IMG/VR virus record: IMGVR_UViG_3300044655_001017 | DNA length: 64,000 bases | Reading direction: 5' to 3' (one strand) | DNA from: a virus | Lineage: Duplodnaviria; Caudoviricetes | Shown here: positions 8,096-58,600 of the stretch, in pieces | How positions within the stretch are numbered: the first letter of the stretch is position 1 | How the letters are laid out: every line of letters begins with the position of its first letter | Notes under the pieces: generated by a model | Told to the model about the DNA's origin: nothing | Databases searched by the model: none | The model's input: only the letters and a program-made list of their open reading frames with translations | Program-made: the position numbers and the translations under genes

Positions 8096-8629
8096 TTATC
8101 CTGTATATCTACAATGGCTTTTGCGAGTTTCCCACAGCTCAACTGCAGTAACCTTTGCTACATCACCTATACGTGATTGAGCATATTCAAACAAATACTT
8201 ACAAATGTTTTCACTAGTTGGTACAAAATCTACTAGTACAAAACTGTTATAATGTAATTGTTCACCTTCAGTTAATCCAACCCAGTTGTAACTTCCTAAG
8301 TTAGTAAAGTTTGCAAATGGGTGTTTGGCTTTGCTCCATTCGTTACCTGTAATTAACTTAAAGTTTGGATCATTGATATCAATCATAAACTTATGATCTA
8401 GCACATCATCTACAAATTGTTTCATAAAGTTTAAATTCTTAAAGTCTGTAACCATTTCTGAATGATCTAACGTATCAGAACCTAAAAATACTTTAATTGA
8501 ATAGCTGTGTCCGTGTAAATGCTTGCAGGCACAGTCAGTTGAAATACTTAACTCAACATGATTTAATTTTTGTGCCCATACTCTGTGTCCCATTTCAAAA
8601 TGAAACTCTTTATCTATTTCCCATTTCAT
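8096..8629 (-). CDS. queD: 6-carboxy-5,6,7,8-tetrahydropterin synthase (QueD)
   Basis: KEFHFEMGHR, CKHLHGHSY (CxxxHGH), MVTDF, LDHKF, PTSENI, ELWET. Confidence 0.9.
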   Translation of the reverse strand: MKWEIDKEFHFEMGHRVWAQKLNHVELSISTDCACKHLHGHSYSIKVFLGSDTLDHSEMVTDFKNLNFMKQFVDDVLDHKFMIDINDPNFKLITGNEWSKAKHPFANFTNLGSYNWVGLTEGEQLHYNSFVLVDFVPTSENICKYLFEYAQSRIGDVAKVTAVELWETRKSHCRYTG

Positions 8630-13819: not shown

Positions 13820-14326
13820 ATGAAATTAGACAAATTTGCAAATCCAATTTTTAACGAAGCTGATGTGTTTGATGCCCTGTATGCAGGGCATCAGTCAGCA
13901 ATCTCAAATATCGTAGTTGAAGATAACTACGAATTTTTACAATTATCAAACATAGCAGAAATAACCTTTGCTAAAAATTTAGAAACATTAGACACTACTG
14001 TTGAAGAGTACGACAGTATTAATCAACAACATTGGTTTATGCCTGAACAGTATTATACATTTAATATACAAGAATATTGCATTAGTAAATGCAACTCCTT
14101 AGATGAACAAACTAGGGTTATTGAAGAATTGGCTGAATTTAAAAATAGAAATTTAATGCAAGTATTACAATGGTTAAAATATTTTGTCGATACTTGTTTA
14201 GCTGAAAACATAATATGGGGTGTAGGTAGAGGGTCTAGTGTTTCAAGTTTTGTATTATATTTGTTAAATGTTCATAGAATTCATAGCATTAAATATAATT
14301 TAGACTGGCGAGAGTTTCTAAGATAA
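13820..14326 (+). CDS. Stand-alone fragment homologous to DNA polymerase III alpha (DnaE)
   Basis: RVIEEL...WGVGRGSSVSSFVLYLLNVHRIHSIKYNLDWREFLR mirrors DnaE GRGSAAGSLVAY.LGIT..DP.KY.L.FERFL; only 168 aa. Confidence 0.75.
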   Translation: MKLDKFANPIFNEADVFDALYAGHQSAISNIVVEDNYEFLQLSNIAEITFAKNLETLDTTVEEYDSINQQHWFMPEQYYTFNIQEYCISKCNSLDEQTRVIEELAEFKNRNLMQVLQWLKYFVDTCLAENIIWGVGRGSSVSSFVLYLLNVHRIHSIKYNLDWREFLR

Positions 14327-15135: not shown

Positions 15136-16062
15136 ATGCAAATGGCAACAACATCATTATGGGTTGAAAAATATCGTCCAAATACAATAGATAGCTACGT
15201 ATTTAGAGATCAGCAGCAAAAAAATCAAATAGACGGGTGGATTAAACAGCAAAGCATTCCACATCTACTGTTTAGTGGTAGTGCCGGTATTGGTAAAACT
15301 ACACTTGCAAAAATATTGTTTAATGAACTAGATATTGAACCATTAGACATTTTAGAAATTAACGGATCAAGAACTAACTCAGTTGACGACGTTCGTAACT
15401 TAATTACTAACTTTGTACAAATGATTCCGTTTGGTGACTTTAAAGTTGTATTATTAGACGAAGCAGATTACTTATCAGTGAATGCACAAGCAGCATTGCG
15501 TGGGGTTATGGAAGAATATCATAACACTGCAAGATTTTTACTTACATGTAACTATCCGCATAAAATTATTCCTGCTATACATTCAAGATGTCAAGGGTTT
15601 CATATTGAAAAAGTTGATATTGTAGAATTTACTGCAAGGGTAGCTACTATTTTAGTAGAAGAAAATGTTGATTTTGATTTAGACACACTTGATACTTTTG
15701 TTAAAGCAACTTACCCAGATCTACGAAAATGTATTAATACAGTACAGATGAACAGTTTAAGTGGTACGCTTGCGTCACCATCATATAGCGATACTGGTAG
15801 CGGCGACTATAAAGTAGAAATGGTAGAATTATTTAAAGCAGGTAAAATATCCGATGCCCGTAAACTGCTATGTTCTCAAGCACGACCAGAAGAGATGGAA
15901 GAAATCTATAGATGGTTATATGATAATGTAGAAATATTTGGTAACGAGACACTACAAAATAAAGCTATCCTTATTATTAAACAAGGACTAGTTGATCATA
16001 CTATTATTGCAGATGCAGAGATTAATTTATCTGCTACATTAATACGATTAGGCAATCTGTAA
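15136..16062 (+). CDS. Clamp loader AAA+ subunit (RFC / T4 gp44-like)
   Basis: LWVEKYRP, Walker A GSAGIGKT, LLDEAD, AQAALR, SRC motif, DLRKCIN. Confidence 0.92.
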   Translation: MQMATTSLWVEKYRPNTIDSYVFRDQQQKNQIDGWIKQQSIPHLLFSGSAGIGKTTLAKILFNELDIEPLDILEINGSRTNSVDDVRNLITNFVQMIPFGDFKVVLLDEADYLSVNAQAALRGVMEEYHNTARFLLTCNYPHKIIPAIHSRCQGFHIEKVDIVEFTARVATILVEENVDFDLDTLDTFVKATYPDLRKCINTVQMNSLSGTLASPSYSDTGSGDYKVEMVELFKAGKISDARKLLCSQARPEEMEEIYRWLYDNVEIFGNETLQNKAILIIKQGLVDHTIIADAEINLSATLIRLGNL

Positions 16063-33035: not shown

Positions 33036-33209
33036 ATGGAAGAATTTAATACCTGTACGGAATGCATCCGTCCGGAAGTATGTACAGTAAGATGTGAATG
33101 CAGTATCATTGTTCATGGATCAGAAGAAGTTGCAAAACAACGCGACGAAGCGATGTTTATGGAATGGATTAATGATCATGCAACTAATCGCGATAGAGGT
33201 GCAGAATGA
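33036..33209 (+). CDS. Small Cys-rich protein
   Basis: MEEFNTCTECIRPEVCTVRCECS; ATG at 33036 preferred over the GTG inside the hairpin; ATGA overlap with the polymerase start. Confidence 0.5.
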   Translation: MEEFNTCTECIRPEVCTVRCECSIIVHGSEEVAKQRDEAMFMEWINDHATNRDRGAE

Positions 33210-35869
33210 GTTATGTAGATGCATGGTTTGATCGCGATAATGATGTTATTAAAATTGTAGAAAGAAATTCAAAAGGTGAACGGGAATACAAAGATATTGC
33301 CGTTAAACACACATTATATTATACAGACCCGAAAGGGAAATATCAATCAATTTACGGAGACCCCGTATCAAAAGTAATTTGTAACAATACAAAAGAGTTC
33401 CGCAAAGAACTTTCAATACACGGTAATAAAAAGCTGTTTGAAGCAGATATTAATCCAATTTTTAAATGCTTATCAGATAACTACCTTAATCATGACGCAC
33501 CTAAATTAAATATTGCGTTTTATGATATTGAGGTTGATTTCGATCCAGAACGCGGGTATGCATCACCCGATGATGCGTTTATGCCTATTACTGCTATTGC
33601 AGTGTATTTACAATGGTTAGATACTCTTATTTGTTTAGCAATACCTCCAAAGACATTAACTATGGATCAAGCTAAAGAACAAATTAGAGATATTCCAAAT
33701 ACTATTCTCTTTAACACAGAAGCAGAGATGTTAGACACATTTTTAACACTGCTTGAAGATGCTGATATTATTAGCGGATGGAATAGTGAAGGATTTGATA
33801 TACCATACACTGTAAATCGTGTTACAAAAGTTCTATCAAAAGATGATACACGCAGATTCTGCTTGTTTAATCAATTACCAAAAAGACGTGAATATGAAAA
33901 GTACGGCAAAGCTGCAGTAACATACGACTTTGTAGGACGTGTGCATTTAGATAGTTTACAATTATATCAAAAGTACACATATGAAGAAAGACATAGTTTT
34001 AGACTTGATGCTATTGCTGAATATGAGTTAGGTGATCGTAAAACACAGTACGAAGGTACGCTTGATCAGTTATACAACAATGACTTTAGAACGTTTATTG
34101 AGTACAACCGTCAAGATACTATGCTATTACACAGACTTGATACAAAATTAAAGTTTATTGACCTAGCTAATACACTTGCACACGAGAACACTGTATTACT
34201 ACAAACTACTATGGGTGCGGTTGCTGTAACAGAACAAGCAATTATTAACGAATCACATCACAGAGGGTTTGTTGTACCTAACAGAAAAGGTAAAGCAGAA
34301 CCAATTCAAGCTGCAGGTGCGTATGTTGCGTATCCTAAAGAAGGAATTCATGACTGGATTGGCTCGCTAGATATTAACTCTCTGTATCCAAGTGCCATTA
34401 GAGCATTAAATATGGGTCCGGAGACTATTGTAGGACAACTTAGACCAATCGTAACTGACGAATACATAGGCTTACAACTAGCTAAAGGTAAATCGTTTGC
34501 TTCTGCATGGGAAGGGTTGTTTGGTACACTTGAATATACGTCTGTTATGAATGAAGAAATAGGTACTGATATTACAATTGACTGGGAAAATGGCGATACT
34601 GATATATTAAGTGCTGCTGAAGTATACAGATTGATATTTGAAAGTAATCAGCCATGGGTTATGTCAGCTAATGGAACTATCTTTTCATATGAAACAGAAG
34701 GTATTATTCCTGGATTACTAAAGCGATGGTATGCAGAACGTAAGGATATGCAGAAAAAGCTAAAAGAAGCTATTAATGCAGGTAATAAGATTGAAGAAGA
34801 ATATTGGGATAAACGTCAGCTGGTTAAGAAGATTAACCTAAATAGTTTATATGGTGCTATTCTTAATCCTGGATGTAGGTTCTTTGATAAACGTATTGGG
34901 CAATCAACTACGTTAACTGGCAGACAAATTGCTAAACACATGGCAGCTAAAGTAAATGAGATTATAACCGGCGAATACAATCACACAGGTAAGTCTATTA
35001 TTTACGGTGACACTGACTCTTGTTACTTTTCAGCGTATCCTACACTTAAACGTGAAATAGATAATGGTAGTTTACCATGGTCTAAGGAAACTGTTGTTCA
35101 ATTATATGATCAAATTAGTGATCAAGTTAATAGTACATTCCAACAGTTCATGCTTGATGCATTTCATTGCCCTAAATCACGTGGTGAAGTAATTAAAGCT
35201 GGTCGTGAGATTGTTGGTAGTAAGAGCTTATTCATTACTAAAAAACGTTATGCAGTACTAGTATACGATAAGGAAGGTAAACGTAAGGATACACTTGGTA
35301 AAAACGGTGAAATTAAAGCTATGGGCTTAGATTTAAAGCGTAGTGATACACCTGAATTTATTCAAGACTTCTTATCACAAGTATTAGAAATGGTATTAGG
35401 TGGTGATACTGAACAGCATGTACTAGATTACATCAGTAAGTTTAGGATATCGTTTAAAGCTAGACCAGGTTGGGAAAAAGGTTCGCCTAAACGCGCTAAT
35501 AGCATTACGTCTTATTTAGAAAAAGAAGCTAAACAAGGCAAAGTTAATATGCCCGGACATGTTAGAGCAAGTTTAAACTGGAATACACTAAAACGTATGT
35601 ATGATGACAAGTATTCGATGTCTATTACAGACGGTGCAAAGGTAATTGTATGTAAACTTAAACAAAACCCATTAGGGTTTACAAGTGTTGCGTACCCAGT
35701 AGATGAATTACGCTTACCGCAATGGTTTAAAAACCTACCATTTGATCATAATGGAATGGAAGATACTATTATTGATAACAAACTTGATAACTTGATTGGC
35801 ATTTTGAACTGGAAATTAGCTGACACGTCAGATAGAAACACATTTAACAGTTTATTTGAATTTGAATGA
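33206..35869 (+). CDS. Family B DNA polymerase (T4 gp43-like)
   Basis: Exonuclease motifs YDIEV, GWNSEGFDIPY and YNRQD; polymerase motifs DINSLYPS, KINLNSLYG and YGDTDS. Confidence 0.97.
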   Translation: MSYVDAWFDRDNDVIKIVERNSKGEREYKDIAVKHTLYYTDPKGKYQSIYGDPVSKVICNNTKEFRKELSIHGNKKLFEADINPIFKCLSDNYLNHDAPKLNIAFYDIEVDFDPERGYASPDDAFMPITAIAVYLQWLDTLICLAIPPKTLTMDQAKEQIRDIPNTILFNTEAEMLDTFLTLLEDADIISGWNSEGFDIPYTVNRVTKVLSKDDTRRFCLFNQLPKRREYEKYGKAAVTYDFVGRVHLDSLQLYQKYTYEERHSFRLDAIAEYELGDRKTQYEGTLDQLYNNDFRTFIEYNRQDTMLLHRLDTKLKFIDLANTLAHENTVLLQTTMGAVAVTEQAIINESHHRGFVVPNRKGKAEPIQAAGAYVAYPKEGIHDWIGSLDINSLYPSAIRALNMGPETIVGQLRPIVTDEYIGLQLAKGKSFASAWEGLFGTLEYTSVMNEEIGTDITIDWENGDTDILSAAEVYRLIFESNQPWVMSANGTIFSYETEGIIPGLLKRWYAERKDMQKKLKEAINAGNKIEEEYWDKRQLVKKINLNSLYGAILNPGCRFFDKRIGQSTTLTGRQIAKHMAAKVNEIITGEYNHTGKSIIYGDTDSCYFSAYPTLKREIDNGSLPWSKETVVQLYDQISDQVNSTFQQFMLDAFHCPKSRGEVIKAGREIVGSKSLFITKKRYAVLVYDKEGKRKDTLGKNGEIKAMGLDLKRSDTPEFIQDFLSQVLEMVLGGDTEQHVLDYISKFRISFKARPGWEKGSPKRANSITSYLEKEAKQGKVNMPGHVRASLNWNTLKRMYDDKYSMSITDGAKVIVCKLKQNPLGFTSVAYPVDELRLPQWFKNLPFDHNGMEDTIIDNKLDNLIGILNWKLADTSDRNTFNSLFEFE

Positions 35870-35877
35870 ACTACTTA

Positions 35878-35906
35878 TTGACAAATTGATACAAATATAA
35901 TATAAT
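35878..35906 (+). promoter_or_regulatory. sigma70-type promoter for the clamp/TGT operon
   Basis: TTGACA-N17-TATAAT. Confidence 0.8.
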
Positions 35907-35927
35907 ATATAAAACTAGGAGATATAC

Positions 35928-36665
35928 ATGAAAAACTTTTTACAAGATTTAGTAGCACATACACACACATTAACCGTTTTACCATTAGTTAAAGTAACCG
36001 CAACTGCAGAAAATGCAGTGATCGAATCAGTAGCAGAAGATAGATCAGTAATGCTGTACGCAACTACACATACGCCAGTTAATGGTCTCGAACCATGCAT
36101 CTTTGGTATGCCAAACTTAAACAAATTAGACTTACATCTTAAATGTCCAGAATATAAAACTGATGCAACTATTAAAGTTGTACAAGAAACTAGAGATGGT
36201 GTGAAAATTCCAACAGGGTTACACTTTTCTAATGTAGCCGGCGATTATGAAAATGATTATAGATTTATGAATGAAGAAATCGTTAGTGCAAAAGTAAAAA
36301 GACCAAAACTTAAAGTAGAAATTGTGTATGACTTAGATTTTATTCCAGCTGAGGTAAGCATTCAGAGATTAAAACACCAAGCTGCTGCACATACTGAAGA
36401 AACTGTATTTCAACTAGTAACAGTTGATAACGATCTAGTATTTAGATTTGGTGATGCTAGTACACACGCAGGATCATTTGTATTCCATCATAACATTAAT
36501 ACTACATTAAAAAATACATGGTCATGGCCAATTACTCCAATTTTAAGTATTTTAAACTTAAATGGTAACTTAACTATGAAAGTTTCAGATCAAGGTTCGT
36601 TACAAATTATAGTTGACAGTGGTATTGCAGTTTATAACTACACTATTCCAGCATACACAAAATAA
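35928..36665 (+). CDS. Probable sliding clamp (gp45/PCNA-like)
   Basis: 245 aa, directly after the polymerase; alternating beta/alpha pattern; ends YNYTIPA like PCNA; a clamp loader is encoded in the window. Not a motif-level identification. Confidence 0.6.
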   Translation: MKNFLQDLVAHTHTLTVLPLVKVTATAENAVIESVAEDRSVMLYATTHTPVNGLEPCIFGMPNLNKLDLHLKCPEYKTDATIKVVQETRDGVKIPTGLHFSNVAGDYENDYRFMNEEIVSAKVKRPKLKVEIVYDLDFIPAEVSIQRLKHQAAAHTEETVFQLVTVDNDLVFRFGDASTHAGSFVFHHNINTTLKNTWSWPITPILSILNLNGNLTMKVSDQGSLQIIVDSGIAVYNYTIPAYTK

Positions 36666-37057
36666 TGATGGATATTAGAAAAGCATTAAAATTATTAGAT
36701 ATCATATATGTAAACGAAAACGATAGCATTAAATCGTCAGTTGATAAACTAACAATGTTAGCGCAATTAGATATGCCATCTTATTCTATGCCAGGACCGT
36801 TTGAACAGTTTTATGTTGATTACGAATACATGAAACAACGTGTGCAAGGACTTGAATCGAGATTAACCACACTTGAAGATTATAATCGAAACCCATATAC
36901 AAATTACACTGTTAATTCGCATATAGTTGGACATGTTACTGCAAGTCCGCAGTTTGTAAGTGCATTTAACAGAATTACACAATTAGAAACTGAATTACAA
37001 GTTACTAAAACGTTACTTAGTAAGTTATTAACCCCAGAACAGGAAGAAGATGAATAG
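36665..37057 (+). CDS. Hypothetical coiled-coil protein
   Basis: Coupled to flanking genes. Confidence 0.65.
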   Translation: MMDIRKALKLLDIIYVNENDSIKSSVDKLTMLAQLDMPSYSMPGPFEQFYVDYEYMKQRVQGLESRLTTLEDYNRNPYTNYTVNSHIVGHVTASPQFVSAFNRITQLETELQVTKTLLSKLLTPEQEEDE

Positions 37058-38945
37058 AAACTTAACAGCAACACAACAGGATTATGCCGTGTTTTTGCCA
37101 GCAACGTCGGGTTTTTACTCGACGTTTGTTGGAAAACAACGTTACGGCAATTATGTTGAGCCGTCACGTATTCCAACATCATTTAAAGCAGGCGTAGAAG
37201 GTCTTAATTACTTAGAACCAGAAAAAGGTGAATTTTATTACAGATGGTGTTTGTATTCAGCAGGGCATGCAAACTTAGATTTAAATAAGTTTGACGAAAG
37301 TGAAGATATGTTCCGTAATAGAGATAGAAGTACTAGCTGGGTGTTAGGTGACTCCGGAGGCTTCCAAATAGGGAAAGGTGTATGGGAAGGCGAATGGAGA
37401 GATCCTAACAGTGCAATAGTACAAACAACTATGGCTGATTGCATTGCTAAAGGTATTGAAACTGTTCCTGTACTTGACTCAACAGGAAATCCAGTAGTTA
37501 ACAAAAAAGGTGTTCCTAAAACTACTAAAATTGATCACGTTAAACTATATCAAGCTCGGTTAGATGCTGCTCAAAAGAAAAGAGAGCAAGTATTAGCATG
37601 GATGGATACGTTAATGGATTACGGAATGGTACTTGATATTCCAGCATGGGTTGAACGAAGTCCTGCTGGTAAACTTGCAACTGGTATTACAAGTTATGAC
37701 GAAGCAGTTGATGCTACAATTTATAACAATGAATACTTTATGAAACACCGCAATGGTAACTGTAAATTCTTAAACGTATTACAAGGTGAAACCCATACAC
37801 AAGCTGACGATTGGTATAGTAAGATGAAAGACTTTTGTGATCCTGCTATATATCCAGATACACACTTTAACGGGTGGTCAATGGGTGGTCAAAATATGTG
37901 TGATGCCGAACTAGTACTTAAACGTGTAGTAACATTAAAATTTGACAACTTGTTACAAGAAGGCAAACATGATTGGATGCATTTCTTAGGAACCAGTAAA
38001 TTAGAATGGGCATGCTTTTTAACTGATGTACAACGTGCAGTGCGTAAATATGTTAATCCAAAATTTACTATTAGTTATGATTGTGCTAGTCCATTTTTAG
38101 CTACTGCTAATGGTCAGGTATATATTACTACAGAATTAGATGATAGATCTAAATGGGTGTATCGAATGGTTCCAAGCGTTGACGATAAAAAGTATGCACA
38201 AGATGCTAGACTATTTAAAGATGCAGTAATACAAGATGGTATTTTTAGTGTGTTTGATCCAAGTCCATTAATTGATCAAGTAGCAATTAAAGACGTGTGT
38301 ATATATGGTCACGGTGTTCCTAATTGGACAGAAGTCAATAACGATAATGTTGATCATGCTAACCTATTTACAGATCCAAAATATTTAAATGATCCTAAAT
38401 ACTGGATAACATTAGGCGATGCAAATAAAATTAACAAGATTGGTAAAACTAGTTGGGATAGTTTTAGCTATGCTATTTTAATGGGGCATAATGTGTGGAG
38501 TCACGTTAATGCTGTACAAAAAGCAAATGAAGCTTACGACAACGGTATAATTCCTCGAATGTTAATAGGCGAAAAAACTCAACCGTATGTTGTTAGAGAT
38601 ATTATTGACCGGATTATTGCGTGTGATGATAGAACCGTTGCTATTAAGATGATTGAAGATCTTGAAAAGATATGGATGGCTATTCCGGGCACTAGAGGTA
38701 ACACTGGCAAAAACATAGTTAACAACGAAACTACTACTACTACTAATTATGTAGCCGAATCAATTATTACAGAAAAAGTTGAAAAAATTAGAAAAGTGTT
38801 ATTAACAGATCTTACATCACAAGTTAACAACTTATTTGATTTTGATGACAATATTACAGAAGAAGTAGAATCCGATGACTATGAGTTTTCTGAAGAAGAC
38901 GAACTTACCTTATCTAACCTAGAAGATAGCATTAAACATGAATAG
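37050..38945 (+). CDS. TGT-fold guanine transglycosylase (DpdA-like)
   Basis: GDSGGFQ, VLDIP, VLQG, SMGG, HFLG, SYDCAS and GHN match the order of TGT active-site motifs; no CxCxxC zinc motif. Confidence 0.82.
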   Translation: MNRNLTATQQDYAVFLPATSGFYSTFVGKQRYGNYVEPSRIPTSFKAGVEGLNYLEPEKGEFYYRWCLYSAGHANLDLNKFDESEDMFRNRDRSTSWVLGDSGGFQIGKGVWEGEWRDPNSAIVQTTMADCIAKGIETVPVLDSTGNPVVNKKGVPKTTKIDHVKLYQARLDAAQKKREQVLAWMDTLMDYGMVLDIPAWVERSPAGKLATGITSYDEAVDATIYNNEYFMKHRNGNCKFLNVLQGETHTQADDWYSKMKDFCDPAIYPDTHFNGWSMGGQNMCDAELVLKRVVTLKFDNLLQEGKHDWMHFLGTSKLEWACFLTDVQRAVRKYVNPKFTISYDCASPFLATANGQVYITTELDDRSKWVYRMVPSVDDKKYAQDARLFKDAVIQDGIFSVFDPSPLIDQVAIKDVCIYGHGVPNWTEVNNDNVDHANLFTDPKYLNDPKYWITLGDANKINKIGKTSWDSFSYAILMGHNVWSHVNAVQKANEAYDNGIIPRMLIGEKTQPYVVRDIIDRIIACDDRTVAIKMIEDLEKIWMAIPGTRGNTGKNIVNNETTTTTNYVAESIITEKVEKIRKVLLTDLTSQVNNLFDFDDNITEEVESDDYEFSEEDELTLSNLEDSIKHE

Positions 38946-39462
38946 ACAGTATAATAACATAACTACTAACACTGCTAAATTTTTTGTTGGTAACGAGGTA
39001 GAACACACACCAGCATATGGTTTAAAAACATTGTTTGTTGTTGGTAATCAAACTATAGAAGCAGTACATTATCGGTTAGATGCTGAAGAAGATGTTACAC
39101 ACATCTTCTTTGGTGCAAACCATAGCTTTAATCCAAATACACCAGGTGCATGGATTGACTGGAATCACATAATTGAACACTTTTTAAAATTAGGCAAACA
39201 GTGTTCATTAGATATTCCATTTACAGTAGTAAACGATTTTAATAATAAAACTAACTTATGTTCATATTCAAATTTTATTCCACAAATTAGAATTCCGGTT
39301 GCAAATATTAAAGATTGGAGTTATAATACAATGATAAAATTAGATGACATAGATTTTAACGCAACTAATCCCGGGGTGTGGACACATAACTTAAAAGCAT
39401 TGCAAAATGATGATGTGTTTACTAGCTGGACTGACTATAACAACGACAATATAATTAAATGA
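38938..39462 (+). CDS. Hypothetical protein coupled to the TGT-like gene
   Basis: Overlaps both neighbours; GNEVEHTPAYG, HIFFGANHSF, TNPGVW. Confidence 0.7.
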   Translation: MNRQYNNITTNTAKFFVGNEVEHTPAYGLKTLFVVGNQTIEAVHYRLDAEEDVTHIFFGANHSFNPNTPGAWIDWNHIIEHFLKLGKQCSLDIPFTVVNDFNNKTNLCSYSNFIPQIRIPVANIKDWSYNTMIKLDDIDFNATNPGVWTHNLKALQNDDVFTSWTDYNNDNIIK

Positions 39463-39818
39463 CAGATACACAAATGATATGGGTTTCTTTTAAGAAAGAA
39501 GGAATTCACCATTACCCCGATGCATTAACTAACCCTAACTTAATAGATGTATCTTTTTTAGGACATCCACATAGACATATATTTCATTTTAAAGTATGGA
39601 TAGAAGTTACGCATTCTGACAGAGACATTGAGTTTATACAATTTAAACGATGGTTAGAATCATTGTATATTAGTTCAACATTATCATTAGATAACAAAAG
39701 TTGTGAAATGATAAGTAATGATTTATCATTAACAATTAGAAATGAATACCCTAATAGGGAAATTTGGATTGAAGTTTCTGAAGACGGCGAAAACGGATCA
39801 TTTATTAAGTATTTGTAA
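39459..39818 (+). CDS. T-fold QueD paralogue, DpdL-like (predicted CDG decarboxylase)
   Basis: FLGHPHRHIFHF (LxxxHRHxF in place of CxxxHGH), DRDIEF, SCEM, VSEDGENG. Confidence 0.7.
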   Translation: MTDTQMIWVSFKKEGIHHYPDALTNPNLIDVSFLGHPHRHIFHFKVWIEVTHSDRDIEFIQFKRWLESLYISSTLSLDNKSCEMISNDLSLTIRNEYPNREIWIEVSEDGENGSFIKYL

Positions 39819-40337: not shown

Positions 40338-41435
40338 ATGAAATTAAAACCTACTATTTGGATATTTGCTATTGAACCATTAGATACTCGGTATACTAAA
40401 CAATGGATCGAGCATATTCCATCACAACTTAAAGAACACGTTGGTGATTACAACATTGTACAAATTACTGGTGATCAACAAGACTCAGAAGTAACACCGG
40501 GTGCATTTTTAAACTTTATAGATACTAACATTTGGAAAGGATCACAGCTTGTTGGTTTTTTAAAAAACTATAAACGTACTACAACAGCTGACCATTTCTT
40601 ATTTACCGATGCATGGAATCCAGCAATTATAAACTTAAAGTACATTAAAGACTTAATGAGATTAAATTGGACATTTCACGGTTTGTGGCACGCTGGCAGT
40701 TACGACAAACACGATTTCTTAGGTTCAATTGATCACGGTTGGGTTAAACTAGCTGAAAAGAGTTATTATGCAGCATTTGATCATAATTACTTTGCAACTG
40801 AATTCCACGTGCGTATGTTTATGGAACAATTATTAAACAACGGAATGACTAGTGAAAATCCGTGGTTTGAAGAAGATTGGGATGAACGTTACGACGATGG
40901 TAAAATTGTACGCACTGGTTGGCCAATGGAATACTTAGCAGACGAACTAGCGCCGTATGCTAATAAAGAGAAACGTGATTTAATTGTATTTCCACATAGA
41001 GTTGCTAGCGAAAAACAAGTTGATATTTTTAAAGCATTAGCTCATCAATTACCACAATACGACTTTGTTGTATGTCAAGAACAAAAGCTAAGTAAAGATG
41101 AATATCACAACCTGTTAAGCGAAGCAAAGATCGTGTTTAGTGCTAACTTACAAGAAACATTAGGCATTAGTTGTTATGAAGGTGCGTTACTTGGTGCTAT
41201 TCCGATGGTTCCTGATAGATTAAGTTATAAAGAAATGTATATGTATCATTTTAAATATCCATCAGAATGGACTGCTAGTTATGCAGACTACGAATCACAC
41301 AGTTATGATTTGTGTAACAAAATTATCCATTACATAGAAAACTATAATGATATTGTACCATATGTTAAACAACAAGCCGATTACTTAGCACTGGAATTTT
41401 TTAATGCAGGAGATTTATATGACAAGTTTAAATGA
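40338..41435 (+). CDS. GT-B (GT4-like) glycosyltransferase
   Basis: PHRVASEKQ, ETLGISCYE (EX7E), GAIPMVPDRLSY. Confidence 0.8.
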   Translation: MKLKPTIWIFAIEPLDTRYTKQWIEHIPSQLKEHVGDYNIVQITGDQQDSEVTPGAFLNFIDTNIWKGSQLVGFLKNYKRTTTADHFLFTDAWNPAIINLKYIKDLMRLNWTFHGLWHAGSYDKHDFLGSIDHGWVKLAEKSYYAAFDHNYFATEFHVRMFMEQLLNNGMTSENPWFEEDWDERYDDGKIVRTGWPMEYLADELAPYANKEKRDLIVFPHRVASEKQVDIFKALAHQLPQYDFVVCQEQKLSKDEYHNLLSEAKIVFSANLQETLGISCYEGALLGAIPMVPDRLSYKEMYMYHFKYPSEWTASYADYESHSYDLCNKIIHYIENYNDIVPYVKQQADYLALEFFNAGDLYDKFK

Positions 41436-41835
41436 TACAATAACAACATCAGCTGGGTGTGATACTATTACATTTACGATGGATGGAGATCTACGTTACG
41501 GTATACCAGCTTTTGATACTATTACACTTAGTGACTATGTATCTAGTTCAACTGCTAGCGGAATATACAATGGAACAATGATGGGAACTGCTCCGTACAC
41601 AATTAGTAATTCTTCTACTATTGGAATTAATGGGGGTTCATCTTATTACACCGGCACTGGTGGTTATTGGAATCAATCATATAACGGTAAACCATTTGAA
41701 GATAACTTTCCAGAATGGAATGCATTTAGAGAGTTGTGTGATGAATATCCAGGATTAGAAAGAGCATATCAAAACTTAAAAACTTTTTATACTATGTGCC
41801 ATGCAGATAGTTTATTACCAAAGGACGATAAATGA
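41419..41835 (+). CDS. Hypothetical protein
   Basis: GGAG RBS; Thr/Ser/Gly-rich, then CDEYPGLERAYQNLKTFY. Confidence 0.65.
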   Translation: MTSLNDTITTSAGCDTITFTMDGDLRYGIPAFDTITLSDYVSSSTASGIYNGTMMGTAPYTISNSSTIGINGGSSYYTGTGGYWNQSYNGKPFEDNFPEWNAFRELCDEYPGLERAYQNLKTFYTMCHADSLLPKDDK

Positions 41836-42362
41836 AAGTAGTAAAATACAGTTGGAAACAATTAGAAGGTGCGGCATTGGAGATTGCACGTCAAATACAA
41901 AAAGATAACTGGAAACCAGATTACATTGTTGGAATTACACGCGGTGGACTTATTCCTGCAAACTTACTTAGTCAGTATCTTGGAGTTAAGATGTTAACAT
42001 TACACGTTAGTTTACGTGATCATCCGGATGATAACGAACACAATGCATGGATGGCATGTGATGCATTTGGAATTACTGATGACGAACTAGCAAGTACCGG
42101 ACAAGCTAAAAACATCTTAATTGTTGATGACATAAATGACTCAGGTGCAACCCTTGCTTGGATTAAAGAAGATTGGCAATCATTGTGTTTACCAGATAAC
42201 ATACGATGGAAAAACGATGTTTGGCATAAGAATGTTAGATTTGCTGTAGTGTTTGATAATGCTGCTAGTAATGCACATGTTGATTATTGTGCTGAAGAAT
42301 TTGATAAACGAGACGATCCAATTTGGATCGACTTTCCATGGGAAAACTACTGGAAGAAATAA
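41832..42362 (+). CDS. Type I phosphoribosyltransferase (Gpt-like purine PRTase)
   Basis: VGITRGG and LIVDDINDSGAT PRPP loop; WIDFPWE ending. Confidence 0.88.
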   Translation: MKVVKYSWKQLEGAALEIARQIQKDNWKPDYIVGITRGGLIPANLLSQYLGVKMLTLHVSLRDHPDDNEHNAWMACDAFGITDDELASTGQAKNILIVDDINDSGATLAWIKEDWQSLCLPDNIRWKNDVWHKNVRFAVVFDNAASNAHVDYCAEEFDKRDDPIWIDFPWENYWKK

Positions 42363-42876: not shown

Positions 42877-43548
42877 ATGAGCTTTAATAAAACAAAAACC
42901 GATCTAGAATTAGGTTTAGCAATACATAATCATTTAGTAAGTTTAGGTGTAGAAACTCCAGTAACTGAAAAAATCTTAACAGCATCGGAAAAGATTAATA
43001 TCATTCAGGACAAGTTTTATGATATTATGGTAACATTAGGATTAGACTTAACAGACGATAGTTTAGCAGATACACCTAAACGTGTTGCAAAGATGTTTGT
43101 CAACGAAATATTTTGGGGCCTCGATTACGACGCATTTCCAAAGTGTACTACTATTCAAAATAAGATGGGATACAATGAAATGTTAATTGAACGCAACATT
43201 AACGTACAAAGTAACTGCGAACATCACTTTGTAGTAATTGACGGGTTTGCAACAGTAGGTTACATTCCAAAAGATGTTGTACTTGGATTAAGCAAAATTA
43301 ATCGCGTAGTTGAATACTTTGCAAAACGTCCACAAGTACAAGAAAGATTAACAGAACAAGTATTCCATGCATTGGCATACATTTTAGATACTGATAATAT
43401 TGCAGTAGTTATTGATGCAAAACACTATTGTGTTGCTGCAAGAGGTGTAGAAGATACAGGTAGCACTACTATTACTAGTAAGTTAGGCGGTGCATTTAAA
43501 AACGATCCAACTACTCGTGCAGAATTTATGAGTATTGTAAACAAATAA
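42877..43548 (+). CDS. folE: GTP cyclohydrolase I
   Basis: TPKRVAK, CEHHF, GLSKINR, RPQVQERLT, HYCVAARGV. Confidence 0.95.
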   Translation: MSFNKTKTDLELGLAIHNHLVSLGVETPVTEKILTASEKINIIQDKFYDIMVTLGLDLTDDSLADTPKRVAKMFVNEIFWGLDYDAFPKCTTIQNKMGYNEMLIERNINVQSNCEHHFVVIDGFATVGYIPKDVVLGLSKINRVVEYFAKRPQVQERLTEQVFHALAYILDTDNIAVVIDAKHYCVAARGVEDTGSTTITSKLGGAFKNDPTTRAEFMSIVNK

Positions 43549-43556
43549 GGAGAGTT

Positions 43557-44000
43557 ATGAAAGACTTAAAACCACAAATTCCAGCAGTAGGCATTATGAA
43601 AACAAGTGACTGGGGTAACAGTAAAATTTATAAAATTCAATGCACATGCGGCAACGACGATGATAGTATTGAGTTTATGGTTGAGGCAGATGATCTTAAT
43701 ATGATTACTGTAACTACATTTACAACGCAAAAAACTGCGTACTGGGATAGACCATTTGATGTTTCAAACACATACAAAATTAAAAATTCGTTTTTAAGCA
43801 GTATTGCATACGAAACATTGAGCTTTCTTAACGGGTTTCAGCATCGTATTAAAATGACATGGAATTTGTGGTTTAATGGTTATCTTAAATATCAGCAATC
43901 AACTATAATGACTGAACAACAGACATTAAACTATGCAGAAACATTGAAAGCTGCTATTAAAGATTGCAAAGATTTTCGTAAACAAGATAGGAACAATTAA
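43557..44000 (+). CDS. Hypothetical protein
   Basis: AAGGAG RBS; CTCG motif. Confidence 0.7.
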   Translation: MKDLKPQIPAVGIMKTSDWGNSKIYKIQCTCGNDDDSIEFMVEADDLNMITVTTFTTQKTAYWDRPFDVSNTYKIKNSFLSSIAYETLSFLNGFQHRIKMTWNLWFNGYLKYQQSTIMTEQQTLNYAETLKAAIKDCKDFRKQDRNN

Positions 44001-44839
44001 TGTTATTAAAAGTATCGGAATTATTTTACTCATTACAAGGCGAAGGGCGATTTATGGGAGTACCGTCCATCTTCTTACGTACATACGGTTGCAACTTTAA
44101 ATGCCAAGGGTTTGGCATGCCTAAAGGTGAACATAGTGTACAAGCAGATGCTATTGCTAATAACGGTGTGCAATATCATTCGTATGATGAGTTACCGTTA
44201 GTAACTACTGGCTGTGACAGTTATGCAAGTTGGCATCCAACGTTTAAACATCTAAGTCCAACTATGTCAATAGACGAAGTTGCAGCTAAAATGATTGAGC
44301 TGTTACCTAACAATGAATGGGGTGGTGTACACTTAGTTATTACAGGTGGCGAACCATTACTACCCGGTTGGCAAAAGATATATCCAGAATTACTAAGACA
44401 CCCATTATTAGCAGACTTAAAAAACATTACATTTGAAACTAATGGTACACAAGAACTGTTACAAGATTTTGAAAACTACTTATACATGGAAAGACGGTAT
44501 CAAACTACGTTTTCAGTTAGTCCTAAGCTAAGTGTAAGTGGCGAGCCTAGAGAAAAAGCTATACGTCCTGAGATTGTAACAGAATATCAATTTTCAGGTC
44601 ATAGTTCATTCTTAAAATTTGTAGTAGCATCCGAAGACGATGTAACAGAAGCACTTGAAGTAATGCAGCTATATAAAGACAACGGATTTAGAGGTGATAT
44701 TTACTTAATGCCAGTAGGCGGTGTAACTGATGTATACAATCTTAATAATCGACGAGTAGCAGAACTTGCATTAAAGCACGGATTGAGATACAGTGATAGA
44801 CTTCACCTCCCTCTCTTCGGTAACAACTGGGGAACATAA
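44000..44839 (+). CDS. queE: 7-carboxy-7-deazaguanine synthase (radical SAM, QueE) with a split Cys motif
   Basis: ELFYSLQGEG, FLRTYGCNFKC, GCDS, ITGGEPLL, FETNG, SVSPKL, LKFVV, YLMPVGG, RLH. Confidence 0.88.
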   Translation: MLLKVSELFYSLQGEGRFMGVPSIFLRTYGCNFKCQGFGMPKGEHSVQADAIANNGVQYHSYDELPLVTTGCDSYASWHPTFKHLSPTMSIDEVAAKMIELLPNNEWGGVHLVITGGEPLLPGWQKIYPELLRHPLLADLKNITFETNGTQELLQDFENYLYMERRYQTTFSVSPKLSVSGEPREKAIRPEIVTEYQFSGHSSFLKFVVASEDDVTEALEVMQLYKDNGFRGDIYLMPVGGVTDVYNLNNRRVAELALKHGLRYSDRLHLPLFGNNWGT

Positions 44840-52661: not shown

Positions 52662-55600
52662 TTACAAGTTAAAATCCTTACTATACGTCTTACCTACTAC
52701 TAAAGGAGCATCTTTAAAATATACGTTCACAAACGCTTTTCCTCGAAATGCATTGTCTGGAATTGATAGTGTAGATGTAGAACTCGACTCTCCAACTGTA
52801 GAAAACGAATAATCGTTTGGATCAACTAATTCATACGTTGCCTCATATACTTTTTTGTGTATATTATTAGTAGCACTTGTAATATTATCAGTAACAGATA
52901 TAGTAGACCAGTCATTGTTTACAACGTTTGATATCCCTCCGGTTAACTCACGCGACGGTATTGCAGGTAATGATGGTAGTAATACTGGTCCTGTAATGGG
53001 ACCAGTATTACCTCCTCCTTGCACTGGTCCAATAATAACAATTCCAGCATTTGGGTCTGCTAACCCAATTGCTGTTGTTTTTGTTGCAGTTTTACCATCT
53101 ACAAACGTAATTGTTAATATTGCTGATCCAATTATACCATATGGTATAGTGCCAGTTCCTGTTCCTGTCTGTATAGGTAAGGTTATCTGTGGAGAAACAC
53201 CTACAGTAACACCAGTACCGCCAGTACTATATGTGTAAACTGCAGTTTTTGATATAATTTCTAACTGACTTGTTGTTGTATCAGATACTACAAACACAGT
53301 ATTAGAACCGTTTTTAGTATTTGAGGTAGTAGTAAAGCTTCCAGTAATTACACGTAATGCTTCGTCAACTGCAGTTCTACCACTTGTAGATTCAGTCGCA
53401 TAACCTGTAGCATTTCTTGCAATAACTGTTACTGTATAATTTACATACTGTTGCAAATTATTATATGCGCGTATAAAGAGTCCGTTATTTTCAGAAATTA
53501 TTGTCGGATAGTTTGGATTTACATCTATATTTGTTTCATAACTAGCTACTGCACCACCTGAGGTCGGAGCCCTCCATTGGATTGCTAAACTCGAAGGTGA
53601 TATTGCACTAATTAACAAACTAGTAGGTTTTCCGGGAGATGCAGGTGGTTGCTGTATTAACTCCTGTATTCCAAACGATCTCGTAATTGGTAACGTTCTA
53701 TCATCTCGAAAATGCAACGTTAATGTTGCAGATCCAATAACACCTGCTGGCATTACAAATGAAGTTATTGGTGTGTTTCCCGCTAGTGTATCATATTTTT
53801 GAACGTTATATTGAGGAGCTGCCTCACCACCAACATACCCAGTAACATATGATGCTAAGAATGATCTGCCATCAATATTAGCTGATACAATATTGTCAGA
53901 TATAGAAATAGTAACAAAATTAGTAGTACCTTGTCGCGTACTAGTTATATTAAATTCACCTGTGTAATCTTGCGGTAGTAAGGTAAACGCAGTAGTAGCA
54001 GTTGTCTGTGCAGAATTTGATCCTGACACATTAATTGCAGTTACTGTAATTGTATATAATGTATGTTGAGTTAACCCCGATAATGTAGTTGTGTACAAAT
54101 CTCCAGATGCATCTGTTGTTGTATAGATTGTGTCAGTACCATTAATTGGAGTACTTGTCGCATATTGTGCAGAAACTGTATATCGGTCAGCTGACCCACC
54201 TATTGGGCTAGTAGTCTTACGCCAGTGAACTAACATTGACGTGTTTTGTATTCGACTTACACTTACTGCCGACGGTGCGCCTGCTACCGATTGCACTGCA
54301 GGTAAATTAGATTTTTCTGTCGAAACTGTTAATTTTTGTCCATCTGCATATGTTAATGTTAAAAATCCTTGGCAGTCAGTCGAAAATGCAATATCAATTG
54401 GGTTTGGTGCCGACTGAGCTGCTGTCTTAGTTGCTTTAGTACCGTATACATAATAATAAGTACGTTGTGCGCTAATATCATCACTAGTAATGTTAGCTGT
54501 TATTGATGCAATTACTTTAGTACGATTTGTGTCGTAAGCTAAATTTAAAGTTAATGTACCTGAATATTCATGCACTGTACCAGGTGAAATTGTACGACCA
54601 GTCCACGGAGTCCACGATCCTATATTATCGCCATACTGTGATTCAACATACTCAAAAGTAATTGATACCATACCATCGTCTGGGTTTGACCCTGCAAATC
54701 TAAATCCAGTCGGGACATACGATGTTCCGCCTTTGCCGCCAGTTGCACCATCTTTAGATGTATTACCAAGAGTTCCGGCGGCGCCACCTGGGGCGCCGCC
54801 ACCACCGCCACCGGCGCCACCTTTACCGCTTCCATCAGAGCCTGTTACACCGTTAGAAATTGCAGAATAAGATGATGATTGGTTAGTAGCAGAGGCATTA
54901 CCACCTGCACCACCGCTTTCTGTTGAATAACTTCCTCCGCCGCCGCCACCTGCACCTACACATACCGGGGTTCCTACAAAAGAAGTCCCAATAAATATTG
55001 CAGATGCGCCGCCGCCTGCACCGCCGCCGCCTGATTCAGATGCACCACTCTTCCCTCCAGAGCCGCCTATTCCTAATACGTTGTTAACAGCAATACCCGG
55101 TGCATACCGAACACTTTCTGCCGGAGTTCCTAGTTGCCCGACTACTACGGATAAAGAAGTAGCTGATGTTAATGCAGTCGATGTACCACTTATTGAATCA
55201 CCAGGAGTTGGATTTCTACTATATCCCATACTTCCGGCAGCTCCTGAAACAACAACTGATTTAACTTTCACACCGTCTCGAAATACGATAACACCCGATA
55301 CTCCGTAATGTTTAGTAACCGTTTTTATTACATCTGTAATAGTTAGTGTAGCAGTTCTAGTATTCCCATCTTCAAATTTTGCAGTAAACGTACCAACACC
55401 TGCACCGGGGTTACTATCTTTATACTCTATTGTTAACTTACCAGTACTATCTAAATTTGCTTTATGCCACGAACTGTTGCTTGTAAAAGTACCTGTACCA
55501 ACTATTGATATTAACACTTGTGAGCCAGCTTTACCACCTGTTATCATTACGTTTGAAGTTCCATTAGATCCGCGTGACGCAGGATCAATTACTATCGATT

Positions 55601-58600
55601 GATTATATATTGTTGCAACTTCTAATGTAATATCTGCACTACTAACAAACAATGATGCATTTGTATAAGGATTGTTAGTAGTAAATTTTATAGTAAATGC
55701 CAAATAACCAGTTAATCCGACAACTGGACTTGCTTGTAAATTTGCAAAAACTTGATAGGTATTTGATGATAAAAATGTAGTATCTTTAGTTGTTAACACA
55801 CCAGTTGTTTCGTTAGCACCTAGTGACCGGCGTATTAATGGATTAGTTGTTTCTACAGTAATTGTTATTGGTAATATTCTATCAACTGGATCAAATTGAG
55901 CTACTACTTTATACACAGTAGTATCAGTAACTTTTAATGTAAACGGCTGTTCTTTGATAGATGCAATAATTTGTGGTTTTGGAGGTTCATTAACTGTTAA
56001 TATAGCAGAACACGATGGTGTTTTGCTATTAAAACTTGCAGTAAATGTTTTAATTCCACCAGTTTTCCATGTACTAATGTTTGCTGTGTAATTTCCATTT
56101 ACATCTAATTTAAATCCTTGTCCAACTGCATAGTCCACACCCATATCTTTCACAGGAGCACCAGTTGAAAGTATAGACCCCTGATCTTCAGGTTTACCGC
56201 CGCTAATACTCAATGTAGACACTTCGTTATAATTAACAGTTGGCTTAACAATTTTCATAGTTGGGGCATATACAATTGCAATTGGAGGTGCATTAGGAAC
56301 TATAAATTCTAATATTTTAGAAGTTATAGTACACGTTGGTTCTGTTACACTTGTAAATTGAACTTGAAACTGTTCGGAATTTTTAATCTCTTGACGATAT
56401 GCTGATGTATATGTAATTTCAAGCGTTGAGGTGCTACTAGTAGTTACAATTTTAGAATTAGTCGAACCTTGATTTAATGCTCCAAAAATAAATGTGTGTG
56501 ATGCATTAACAATAGAACACTTAAATTGTTCACCAGTAAACGCAGGAGACACTGCAGCTGTAATTCTTAAAGTTCCAGTTTCCTTGTTAACAACTGCTGA
56601 TGCTGACGCTGGCATAGTAATACCTGCGATACTTCCAACACCGTTACCATTAAAATAACCTGTAATATCAACAGTATGTTTTAGTTTTTTTGAAGTATCC
56701 TCAAGTTTTACTTTTGGACTTGACCCTTGATTTGTTAACACTTTTCCAGGTTCGGTAGCGTCTACTGATATATAAAATTCAGTTACTGTATCGTCTAACT
56801 GATTTGCAACTGCAGTAAAATCAAACCAAGTATTATTAGATGGATCTTTAGTTTTACTTCCACTATTAGTTTGTAACCCTAATCGTTTATAATCAACACC
56901 AATTAAAGTCCAGCTTATTAAAGTACCGGCAGGAACTGACGTTGGCGTTGTAACTGTAAATCGAACTGTGTTCTTTGTTGGTGTTTCATCAATTGTCAGA
57001 AAATTAGCAGTAATTACATACGAATCCGGAGCAACTAATGTAAATGTAGGTTTAAGACCAGTAGACCCAAACCGTAAATTAGTACTTTGAGGGAGACTAT
57101 AATTAAGAGTATGTGGCTGATTTAATAGTTGGTTACCTGTTACTGTCCGGACATCGCTAATCTTACCTGTTGCCGGCGCTTGAGAAAGTGCTGTAGGATC
57201 CGGAACACTAACTATGCGTTCTACTGTAAAAGGAGCCGGAGTTGGTGTATATGCATCTGGATCAGCAAAAATTTCAATTGTTGTAAATGGATAATAATAG
57301 GGTACAAATACTTTATACACTAAATCTGGAGCATTTTTTCCTGCTGGACTATGTATTAAAGTATTACCAGTATCAAGATAAATATCTATGTTTTTAAGGT
57401 AATACAGCTCTACATATGTATACGTATTGGAATGGTTTATCTCGTATGTTAAGAGAGCTCCGCCAATTCTTAATTCAAGAAGAACTGCAAACCCTATCCA
57501 TATGGCAGATAAACTAGGTGTTGCAACACTAAAATCAAGTTTGGCTTGGTTAGCAGGTAGAGTTATTGAACCAGTTAACACCAATTGCGGCGGCAGCACT
57601 GGAGTGCCTGTACCAGCTATATTTTTCCAAGGCACAATCACCCAGTCAATTACCCGATCCGATGCAGTAGGTCCATCGGTAGTAAGAGTAAACTCCATTG
57701 GATCACCTAGTATAACCTTACTATACTTAGCTGTTAAGTACCAGTATTTATAATTTGGTGTAGTTGGACCACCTGGGGTAGTTGTAACTGGACCACCTGG
57801 GGTAGGTGTAACTGGACCACCTGGAGTAGTTGTAACTGGTGCATCTTTAATTGTTACTGTCCCGCTAGATACATAACTAGATTGCGCAAGGTTGTATAAT
57901 CTAACAGTAAAAGGTCTGCTACCTTTTGCTGGGTTAGGATTAACAGTAGTTAACGTAAGTGTTCCGGCATATCCGGTAATTAAATTTACATTTAGTGTCA
58001 TGCTACCTTCACCAAAATCGCTAGCGGTAATTGCGCCAGGGACTGTTGAGACAATCTCGCATAACAACTGTGTATTAATATCAAGCTTTGGTGACGTAAC
58101 TTCAAATACTATAACATTACCTGCCGTAACCTCGCGGGCTGTTTCTTTAATTTTATACGGTGTATCCTCAGTAATAGTAATAGTTGGGCTACCGCCTGTT
58201 AATATAATTAATACATTACTTTGATATATTTCAACTTGGAACTGTTCCGACCCTTCTGGAGCGATGAGTGAACCAACTGTTGTTGATATAGAAAGATTGT
58301 AAGAACTTGCTTCTTTAGTTACTATAAACGACCCAGTTAAACTAGCCGGTGAAAAATCAGAGCCGTCTAACGTGCTACCATTAGCACCTACTCCAATAAG
58401 TCTATAAGAGTATGTTATGTCTTGTAGTAACTTTGGAGTTGAGAATACAAATGTTGCTGTATTACCCTCCATTACTGAATTATTTGGAGTAGTTGAAGTT
58501 AATGTATATACTGCAAGTTCTGTAATTTTTACAATTGGACTCGGTAAACCTAACGTAACCGGTGTTTGACTACCTTGAGGTCTTAATTCAATACGGAATG

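Follow-up and report, generated by a model that had tools for sequence, protein, structure and literature searches.

A divergent transglycosylase-like enzyme of jumbo phages carries a polymerase-type tail motif that may dock it on the replisome

Background

How a DNA transglycosylase finds phage DNA, spares the DNA of the host and, in some phages, replaces every G is an open question in the field, and it is raised in a particular form by a 64,000-nucleotide stretch of virus DNA (IMG/VR record IMGVR_UViG_3300044655_001017; Duplodnaviria, Caudoviricetes), the whole of which we call the window. Genes for a T4-type DNA polymerase, a predicted sliding clamp and an enzyme resembling tRNA-guanine transglycosylases (TGT) lie close together here, and the polymerase and the enzyme carry the same kind of short motif in their C-terminal tails. 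A docking peptide common to the two proteins offers a concrete and testable answer, namely recruitment to the replisome. We consider it reasonably likely that the enzyme is a new DpdA-like DNA transglycosylase brought to the replisome, most likely via the clamp, by a tail peptide of the polymerase type.

Tethering of this kind is familiar from eukaryotes, where DNMT1 and UNG2 are attached to PCNA through a short clamp-binding peptide in a disordered region and act on bases of new DNA at the fork. The concept is the same, whereas the enzyme families and their chemistry are unrelated, and in the window the aim would be to replace a base throughout a viral genome. Published work on DpdA holds insertion to be post-replicative and names no link to the replisome. 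A literature search for DpdA or deazaguanine together with a sliding clamp or clamp binding found no published description, nor any 'DpdA5', in agreement with a preliminary description of the window, made from the sequence alone, whose author knew of no clamp-tethered DpdA. A replisome-docked transglycosylase would be a new combination of known DpdA-type enzymes and clamp clients.

Results and discussion

A polymerase-type motif in the tail of the enzyme

The two proteins and the segments of interest are the following.

33206..35869, plus strand: T4-type family-B replicative DNA polymerase, 887 aa (Pfam DNA_pol_B 8e-37; exonuclease domain 2e-18; phrog_262 4e-201)
35843..35866, plus strand: putative docking motif FNSLFEFE, the last eight residues of the polymerase (from translation)
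37050..38945, plus strand: divergent TGT-superfamily enzyme, candidate DNA 7-deazaguanine transglycosylase, 631 aa (Foldseek, hhalign)
38823..38846, plus strand: putative docking motif VNNLFDFD, residues 592-599 of the 631 (from translation)
38847..38942, plus strand: acidic tail of 32 residues with a conserved terminal amphipathic helix (EF.E.E...L..LE type), conserved in most relatives

Both motifs stand where the preliminary description had placed them. Translation of the open reading frame (ORF) at 33206-35869 ends in FNSLFEFE, and VNNLFDFD heads an acidic tail that is probably disordered: in the AlphaFold2 model of the enzyme, the predicted local distance difference test (pLDDT) falls below 50 for residues 553-582 and 587-613, as expected of a disordered tail, and rises to about 70 for a short helix at residues 615-630. 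The tail of T4 gp43, which had been cited as a precedent, was verified as SLDFLFG. In T4 and RB69, the C-terminal tail of gp43 is a clamp-binding peptide, and gp33 and gp55 bind the clamp likewise. These peptides and the PCNA-interacting peptide (PIP) boxes are short, hydrophobic and centred on LF, and a peptide of the same kind stands at the C-terminus of the window's polymerase (SLDFLFG in T4, FDSLFGW in Pseudomonas phage PA5oct, FNSLFEFE in the window), whose thumb region matches the T4 and RB69 gp43 structures at about 1e-10.

The match between the two tails is not chance, and its conservation across relatives is the main argument. Our comparative sample consisted of two sets of 80 IMG/VR loci each (160 in total), in which the enzyme is 54-92% identical to that of the window (first 80) or about 30-45% identical (second 80). 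The polymerase C-termini vary little, reading NTFNxLF[DES]F, in nearly all of about 130 loci NTFN[SK]LF[ED]F, and the pattern hydrophobic-x-x-[L/F/Y]-F is kept in 129 of 130 complete enzyme tails, though these differ in length and sequence. It is kept also in the cultured phages PA5oct and Vibrio phage 2.275.O. The conservation in homologues on which the preliminary description had made its proposal depend thus holds for both proteins. Among 97 representatives of the wider enzyme family, clustered at 50% identity, 33 carry the motif by a strict rule, whereas shuffled tails give 7.6 +/- 2.7, and 0 of 500 shuffles reached 33.

Three settings of the motif can be told apart in the enzyme tails: twelve residues past a conserved GTRG segment with an acidic tail after it; at the exact C-terminus, like the polymerase (e.g. 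TTFDSLFE, LNESLFEF); and after a spacer, again with an acidic tail following, as in the window. Tails with an internal motif have the acidic stretch and its helix, and tails that end in the motif lack both. This helix could bind a second partner, or could mask the DNA-binding face until docking. The motif is also sparse among other proteins: within the window LF[DE]F occurs in only three ORFs of at least 60 aa, namely the polymerase, the enzyme and a membrane-like ORF in which the site is internal, and the 3470 ORFs of the first 80 loci yielded a C-terminal motif of this type for 78 polymerases, 18 enzymes and 9 other proteins.

Two motif-free members of the enzyme family have a readable context (L085 and L190), and both belong to bacterial or integrated elements in which neither a polymerase nor a clamp gene is close by. 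One stands beside TopA, DprA, a TIR protein and an OGG-family gene, the other beside QueE-like and 6-pyruvoyl-tetrahydropterin synthase (PTPS) genes and a phage integrase. Because these contexts look bacterial or bear an integrase, the family appears to exist outside lytic jumbo phages too.

Lineage-specific variants of the motif recur in both proteins, as the following pairs illustrate.

Window: polymerase FNSLFEFE; enzyme VNNLFDFD
L084: polymerase LDDLFDF; enzyme VNNLFDFS
L146: polymerase LQAFFEF; enzyme LNEFFEF
L164: polymerase FFEF; enzyme FFEE
L002: polymerase FFDFD; enzyme YFDFGD
Vibrio phage 2.275.O: polymerase NTDLFDW; enzyme NNDLFGW
PA5oct: polymerase FDSLFGW; enzyme FNSLFDV

On a tree of polymerase sequences from which the motif had been left out, four independent changes from Leu to an aromatic residue can be counted in the polymerase; the enzyme is aromatic in 4/4 of these cases, and the reverse was seen in none. 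We regard this co-variation of lineage variants between polymerase and enzyme as suggestive. In PA5oct, the polymerase gene (L081:2608-7834) is interrupted by a Hef-like homing endonuclease gene, and its C-terminal fragment keeps the terminal FDSLFGW.

A very divergent member of the TGT superfamily

Searches with the enzyme, as a single sequence or as a profile, returned no match in Pfam, NCBIfam, PHROG or the PDB sequences, and 98 diverse relatives were equally without one. Comparison of predicted structure and of family profiles was more informative. The 50 best PDB matches listed by Foldseek for the AlphaFold2 model are all tRNA-guanine transglycosylases (E 1e-4 to 1e-3, probability 1.0), with template modelling (TM) scores of 0.24-0.42 that are low owing to a mediocre model. 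A profile of 98 family members was aligned by hhalign with E. coli Tgt at 88.8% probability (E 2.5e-6), pairing GDSGGFQ with TDSGGFQ, LDIP with FDEC, NVLQG with GIIQG, GWSMGG with GYAVGG, HFLG with YLMG, and YDCASP with FDCVMP. Across these 98 diverse members D344 is invariant, D101 (in DSGGFQ) is nearly so, and D196 is likewise invariant or nearly so; the residues aligned with them in Tgt we take to be the substrate-binding and nucleophile aspartates. Its predicted fold and its aligned catalytic motifs place the 631-aa protein in the TGT superfamily, as a very divergent member, and the TGT fold proposed earlier for the gene at 37050 is thereby upheld. The family runs to over 7500 proteins after 90% clustering and to 1069 representatives after 50% clustering, and it defines a large branch of the superfamily, 0 of 98 tested members of which match Pfam.

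With bacterial and eukaryotic Tgt / QTRT1 the enzyme has in common the fold and the motifs DSGGFQ, xDxx, QG, GG, LG and DCxxP, including the nucleophile Asp. It differs from them in a structural-alignment identity of only about 10%, in the want of a Pfam match and of a recognisable zinc-binding subdomain, and in its context, which points to DNA, whereas Tgt / QTRT1 act on tRNA. With phage DpdA1-DpdA4, especially DpdA3 of Cellulophaga phage phiST and of Campylobacter phages, it shares the catalytic core of the superfamily. DpdA systems are encoded with FolE, QueD, QueE and a DpdL-like gene (as in phiST) near a polymerase gene, as is the enzyme of the window, and the presumed reaction, from G in DNA to 7-deazaguanine, would be the same.

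The match to DpdA3 of phiST is nevertheless weak (hhalign 82% over 83 columns); at 631 aa the enzyme is about twice the size of that protein (259 aa), and phiST DpdA3 is without a polymerase-like docking motif, whereas the window enzyme has a long disordered tail with one. A tblastn search of the enzyme against GenBank phages gave no match to any phage DpdA at E <= 5. The label 'DpdA' used in the preliminary description is thus a functional analogy, the enzyme apparently falling outside DpdA3, the one described subfamily compared by profile. As a part of the explanation favoured here, it is fairly likely that the enzyme represents a separate, undescribed branch of the TGT superfamily doing the job of DpdA, a branch set apart by BLAST and by profile comparison with DpdA3 only.

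DNA as the likely substrate

The genes of the window that bear on the supply of a deazaguanine base are the following.

8096..8629, minus strand: QueD, 6-pyruvoyl-tetrahydropterin synthase family (Pfam PTPS 1.8e-28)
39459..39818, plus strand: DpdL-like T-fold protein, proposed 7-carboxy-7-deazaguanine (CDG) decarboxylase (31% identity, E 1e-16 to phiST CGPG_00067, which is DpdL; published LxxxHRHxF signature)
41832..42362, plus strand: purine phosphoribosyltransferase-like protein (Pfam Pribosyltran 5e-17; below the cut-off for NCBIfam xanthine phosphoribosyltransferase)
42877..43548, plus strand: GTP cyclohydrolase I, FolE (NCBIfam FolE 3e-94, above cut-off; Pfam 4e-60)
44000..44839, plus strand: QueE-like radical SAM enzyme (phrog_2076 1e-57; NCBIfam QueE models 1e-12 to 1e-14, below cut-off)

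Given the TGT fold and catalytic motifs of the enzyme and its setting among genes for 7-deazaguanine synthesis, DNA and not tRNA is its likely substrate, as the preliminary description had supposed. Deazaguanine genes also accompany the enzyme in PA5oct, Vibrio phage 2.275.O and the loci L084, L086 and L190, and six-frame searches found no canonical TGT (PF01702) in the complete 372-kb relative of the window, in PA5oct or in Vibrio phage 2.275.O. The DNA of PA5oct resists restriction enzymes in a pattern that indicates modified G (preprint, PMC12191111); the same preprint names QueE and PTPS in PA5oct and no transglycosylase, and an earlier comparative study ascribes to PA5oct a system for deazaguanine synthesis and incorporation, its main text giving no detail. 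Because of the pathway genes, the absence of a canonical TGT and the restriction resistance of PA5oct, we read the enzyme family as the DNA transglycosylase of these phages. This reading would supply PA5oct-like therapeutic phages, the DNA of which behaves as though G were modified, with the transglycosylase that had been lacking from their gene lists; in PA5oct it would be EST35_0316. Every phage known to have deazaguanines in its DNA encodes a transglycosylase, all such modifications have been argued to be post-replicative, and DpdA3 replaces all G (Cui et al. 2023).

QueC was found neither in the complete 372-kb relative nor in PA5oct, and the base inserted here is probably 7-deazaguanine itself; in Vibrio phage 2.275.O the enzyme family is paired with QueC and QueF. 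A sugar-decorated base is possible but unsupported. Within the deazaguanine cluster a 365-aa protein (40338-41435) has glycosyltransferase matches below threshold only (E 0.02-0.05). The QueD gene lies 29 kb away from the other pathway genes, and a 147-aa protein at 43557-44000, considered as a homologue of phiST CGPG_00066, gave no match to it.

A predicted sliding clamp between the two motif-bearing genes

The remaining features that bear on recruitment are these.

15136..16062, plus strand: RFC/gp44-type clamp-loader ATPase (Pfam DNA_pol3_delta2 5e-15, AAA 1e-14; Rad17 E 3.6e-7; Gp44 lid E 0.0012, below its cut-off)
35878..35906, plus strand: promoter-like site with a perfect sigma-70 consensus, TTGACA-17-TATAAT (12/12 matches, 17-nt spacer)
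35928..36665, plus strand: PCNA-fold sliding clamp, 245 aa (predicted structure)
36665..37057, plus strand: small, poorly conserved ORF between clamp and enzyme, 130 aa (no family match; homologue in 2/80 loci)
38938..39462, plus strand: 174-aa gene overlapping both neighbours (no family match)

The product of the gene at 35928 is accepted as the phage's sliding clamp, as had been surmised, because of its PCNA-like predicted fold and on structural grounds alone. Its AlphaFold2 model, folded with 47 homologues, has a pLDDT of 93.7 and a predicted TM score (pTM) of 0.89, and the 50 best PDB matches listed by Foldseek are without exception sliding clamps, whether PCNA, 9-1-1 or viral (E 9e-11, TM 0.6-0.7), with two tandem clamp domains and about 265 columns aligned to PCNA. 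At the level of sequence the clamp gave no match in the PDB, single or profile, its family showed no relation to T4 gp45 by hhalign (probability 0.7%), and against Pfam, NCBIfam and PHROGs the only match was to a PHROG of unknown function. A clamp function is thereby given to that PHROG, which is named 'structural protein' in PA5oct. The PA5oct homologue, EST35_0314 (L081:7915-8661), owes that annotation to virion mass spectrometry; by its fold it should be a sliding clamp, present in the virion preparations through packaging or as a contaminant.

The partners that a clamp requires are present, the replicative polymerase being adjacent and an RFC/gp44-like loader ATPase lying at 15136-16062. 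In 158 of the 160 loci the clamp gene adjoins the polymerase gene and the order polymerase, clamp, (variable genes), enzyme is kept. The five genes at 35928-39818 abut or overlap, and no terminator-like site was found on the plus strand after the promoter-like site at 35878 before about 40300; with genes so tightly packed and no such site between them, they look like one operon. The preliminary description had put the enzyme gene under the same sigma70 promoter as the clamp, and the perfect site at 35878-35906 and the lack of an intervening terminator-like site agree with this. Among the outcomes that the description had named as telling against it were a motif not conserved in homologues of the enzyme and a product of 35928 that is not a clamp, and neither of these came true.

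The clamp as the probable partner

We infer that the clamp is probably the partner of the motif, because the polymerase is homologous to gp43, the tail of T4 gp43 has a peptide of the same kind, the clamp gene lies between the two motif-bearing genes, and a co-fold gave a weak signal. When three copies of the clamp were co-folded with enzyme residues 580-631, the interaction prediction score from aligned errors (ipSAE) was 0.37, against 0.08 for the best control; the controls, two with an unrelated partner and one with an unrelated protein in place of the clamp, spanned 0.00-0.08. The runs share at least 43% of contacts, and the pLDDT of the partner is at least 38. The mark that this pair passed was reached by 58 of 80 solved complexes and by 2 of 110 mismatched pairs.

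The likeness to the T4/RB69 clamp-peptide systems includes the adjacency of the clamp and polymerase genes in the window, and it has its limits. T4 gp45 has no detectable sequence similarity to the window clamp, whose best structural matches are PCNA, and the second client in the window would be a DNA-modifying base-exchange enzyme, unlike the partners of gp45. To our knowledge, DNA base-exchange enzymes are not a class found among those partners.

Alternative explanations

Several observations weigh against a clamp-docked DNA transglycosylase. The co-fold pass is of the weak kind, passes at or below 0.60 comprising just 7 of the 80 solved complexes and both mismatches, and such a pass is likelier wrong than right without a good prior. 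Four events allow a sign test a minimum p of 0.125, which is the value obtained for the Leu-to-aromatic changes, and in seven loci (about five lineages) the motif is aromatic in the enzyme and Leu in the polymerase. No column of the clamp alignment tracks the Leu-to-aromatic variants. The D/E position of the motif does not co-vary between polymerase and enzyme; the co-variation that the preliminary description had proposed to look for in an alignment of homologues is suggested for the Leu-to-aromatic variants and not for this position. A census of motif-bearing tails in the complete 372-kb relative gave only background matches besides the polymerase and the enzyme, with no wider set of clients. 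As to the enzyme itself, its AlphaFold2 model is mediocre (pLDDT 67), the N-terminal 110 residues, including the DSGGFQ segment, being poorly modelled; 0 of 98 family members match Pfam TGT (PF01702) at E <= 0.01; and of the zinc-binding CxCxxC...H pattern no conserved Cys/His cluster was seen in the invariant columns, the region past D344 being unaligned to Tgt.

The alternative that survives best, though we hold it to be rather unlikely, accepts the tail motif as a real docking peptide and assigns it to another hub of the replisome, such as the single-strand-binding protein (SSB), the helicase/primase or a scaffold of the phage factory; the enzyme would still be brought to replicating DNA without riding the ring. 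In its favour stand a motif conserved in both proteins together with a weak clamp co-fold, and a clamp in which no residue co-varies with the motif variants, and the acidic stretch after the motif may resemble the acidic tails of SSB-type hubs. Against it, the extreme C-terminal peptide of the homologous T4-type polymerases is the clamp-binding element, the clamp gene separates the two motif-bearing genes in 158 of 160 loci, and the co-fold controls reached only 0.00-0.08. For the proposal that the enzyme rides the clamp, then, the premises hold (the clamp, the TGT relationship, the conserved motif and the T4 tail), and the binding of tail to clamp is weakly indicated by the co-fold.

It is improbable that the motif-bearing enzyme is no DNA base-exchanger at all, being instead a tRNA transglycosylase, or a TGT-fold glycosylase or base-salvage enzyme, with the deazaguanine genes serving tRNA or nucleotide-level chemistry. 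Such an enzyme would accord with the uniform failure to match Pfam TGT and with the distant relation to DpdA3, and the purine phosphoribosyltransferase in the cluster could indicate a nucleotide-level route. Yet the catalytic Asp residues of TGT are conserved, no other gene of the TGT superfamily is present in three complete phage genomes equipped for deazaguanine synthesis, and a replisome docking motif makes little sense on a tRNA enzyme; the G modification indicated for PA5oct DNA (PMC12191111) and the transglycosylase encoded by all phages known to have deazaguanines in DNA (Cui et al. 2023) argue in the same direction.

A likeness of tails without common function, due to chance or to the composition of acidic, Phe-rich disordered tails, is very improbable. 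In its favour, about 5% of the ORFs in the complete relative have a loose form of the motif within their last 45 residues. Against it, about 130 loci, with core identities as low as 30%, and three cultured lineages retain the motif, which keeps its position while flanks, spacing and architecture change and has lineage variants that match between the two proteins. Its strict form is found 4 times as often as in shuffled tails, none of 500 shuffles equalling the observed count.

A possible coupling of base exchange to replication

If the enzyme is recruited to the clamp as we propose, the clamp, enzyme and DpdL-like genes would be co-expressed from a strong early-type promoter, and FolE, QueD, QueE and the DpdL-like enzyme would make the 7-deazaguanine base. 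The tail motif, hydrophobic-x-x-[L/F]-F-[D/E], and the polymerase C-terminus would both insert in a hydrophobic pocket of the PCNA-fold clamp, and the enzyme would be concentrated where clamps sit on newly copied phage duplex, at the fork or behind it. There it would flip guanines out of the new duplex and swap in the phage-made 7-deazaguanine base, so that only DNA copied by the phage machinery would be marked, an efficient modification confined to the phage.

Were this true, 7-deazaguanine would be written into daughter duplexes at the fork and not after replication, and self-selectivity as well as extensive replacement would follow from the coupling. Among phage DNA-hypermodification enzymes this one would be the first client of a clamp, and its reaction would be the first transglycosylation coupled to the replisome. 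We judge it an even chance that base exchange is coupled to replication in this way across the whole of an abundant lineage of jumbo phages, which counts thousands of metagenomic members as well as PA5oct and Vibrio phage 2.275.O; the two cultured phages make the idea directly testable.

Relatives of the window and other genes

The window is phage DNA of 35% G+C, and its genes include those for the family-B polymerase, the clamp loader, ThyX, dCMP deaminase, PhoH, a ClpB-like ATPase and two giant ORFs. It is most closely related to uncultured IMG/VR contigs, which reach 372 kb in length, among them L001, whose proteins are 92-96% identical to those of the window; its kinship is more distant with the PA5oct group of Pseudomonas jumbo phages, Vibrio phage 2.275.O and Sinorhizobium phage Phosso. 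The giant ORFs both lie on the minus strand, at 52662-62486 (3274 aa) and 3-6272 (>2090 aa).

13820-14326: 168-aa ORF with a match to the NTPase domain of the DNA polymerase III alpha subunit (Pfam 2.5e-9)

This ORF fits the split minimal Pol III alpha of 'group 2.2' jumbo phages. Such a split subunit is said to have been described in that group by Iyer et al. in 2021, with a family-B polymerase reportedly present there too.

Two further proteins have endings that recall the motif. A UV-damage endonuclease of the UvdE family (window 7066-8061, Pfam 2.6e-38) ends in ...SFELFDQFKEEFM, which is of LF[D]xF type and loosely motif-like, and judging from this ending it may be another docking client. 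In some relatives, a third motif-ended family of about 195 aa, which is absent from the window, is encoded a few genes downstream of the enzyme.

L064:8931-9506, L019:13251-13853, L050:10512-11087, L052:10787-11371 and relatives: members of the third family, with the ends Y.SLFEETV, YQNLFEETI and SKLFDFGD

Two of its members have weak MutH-like matches below threshold (E 0.006 and 0.011), and the family may be a nuclease client of the same hub.

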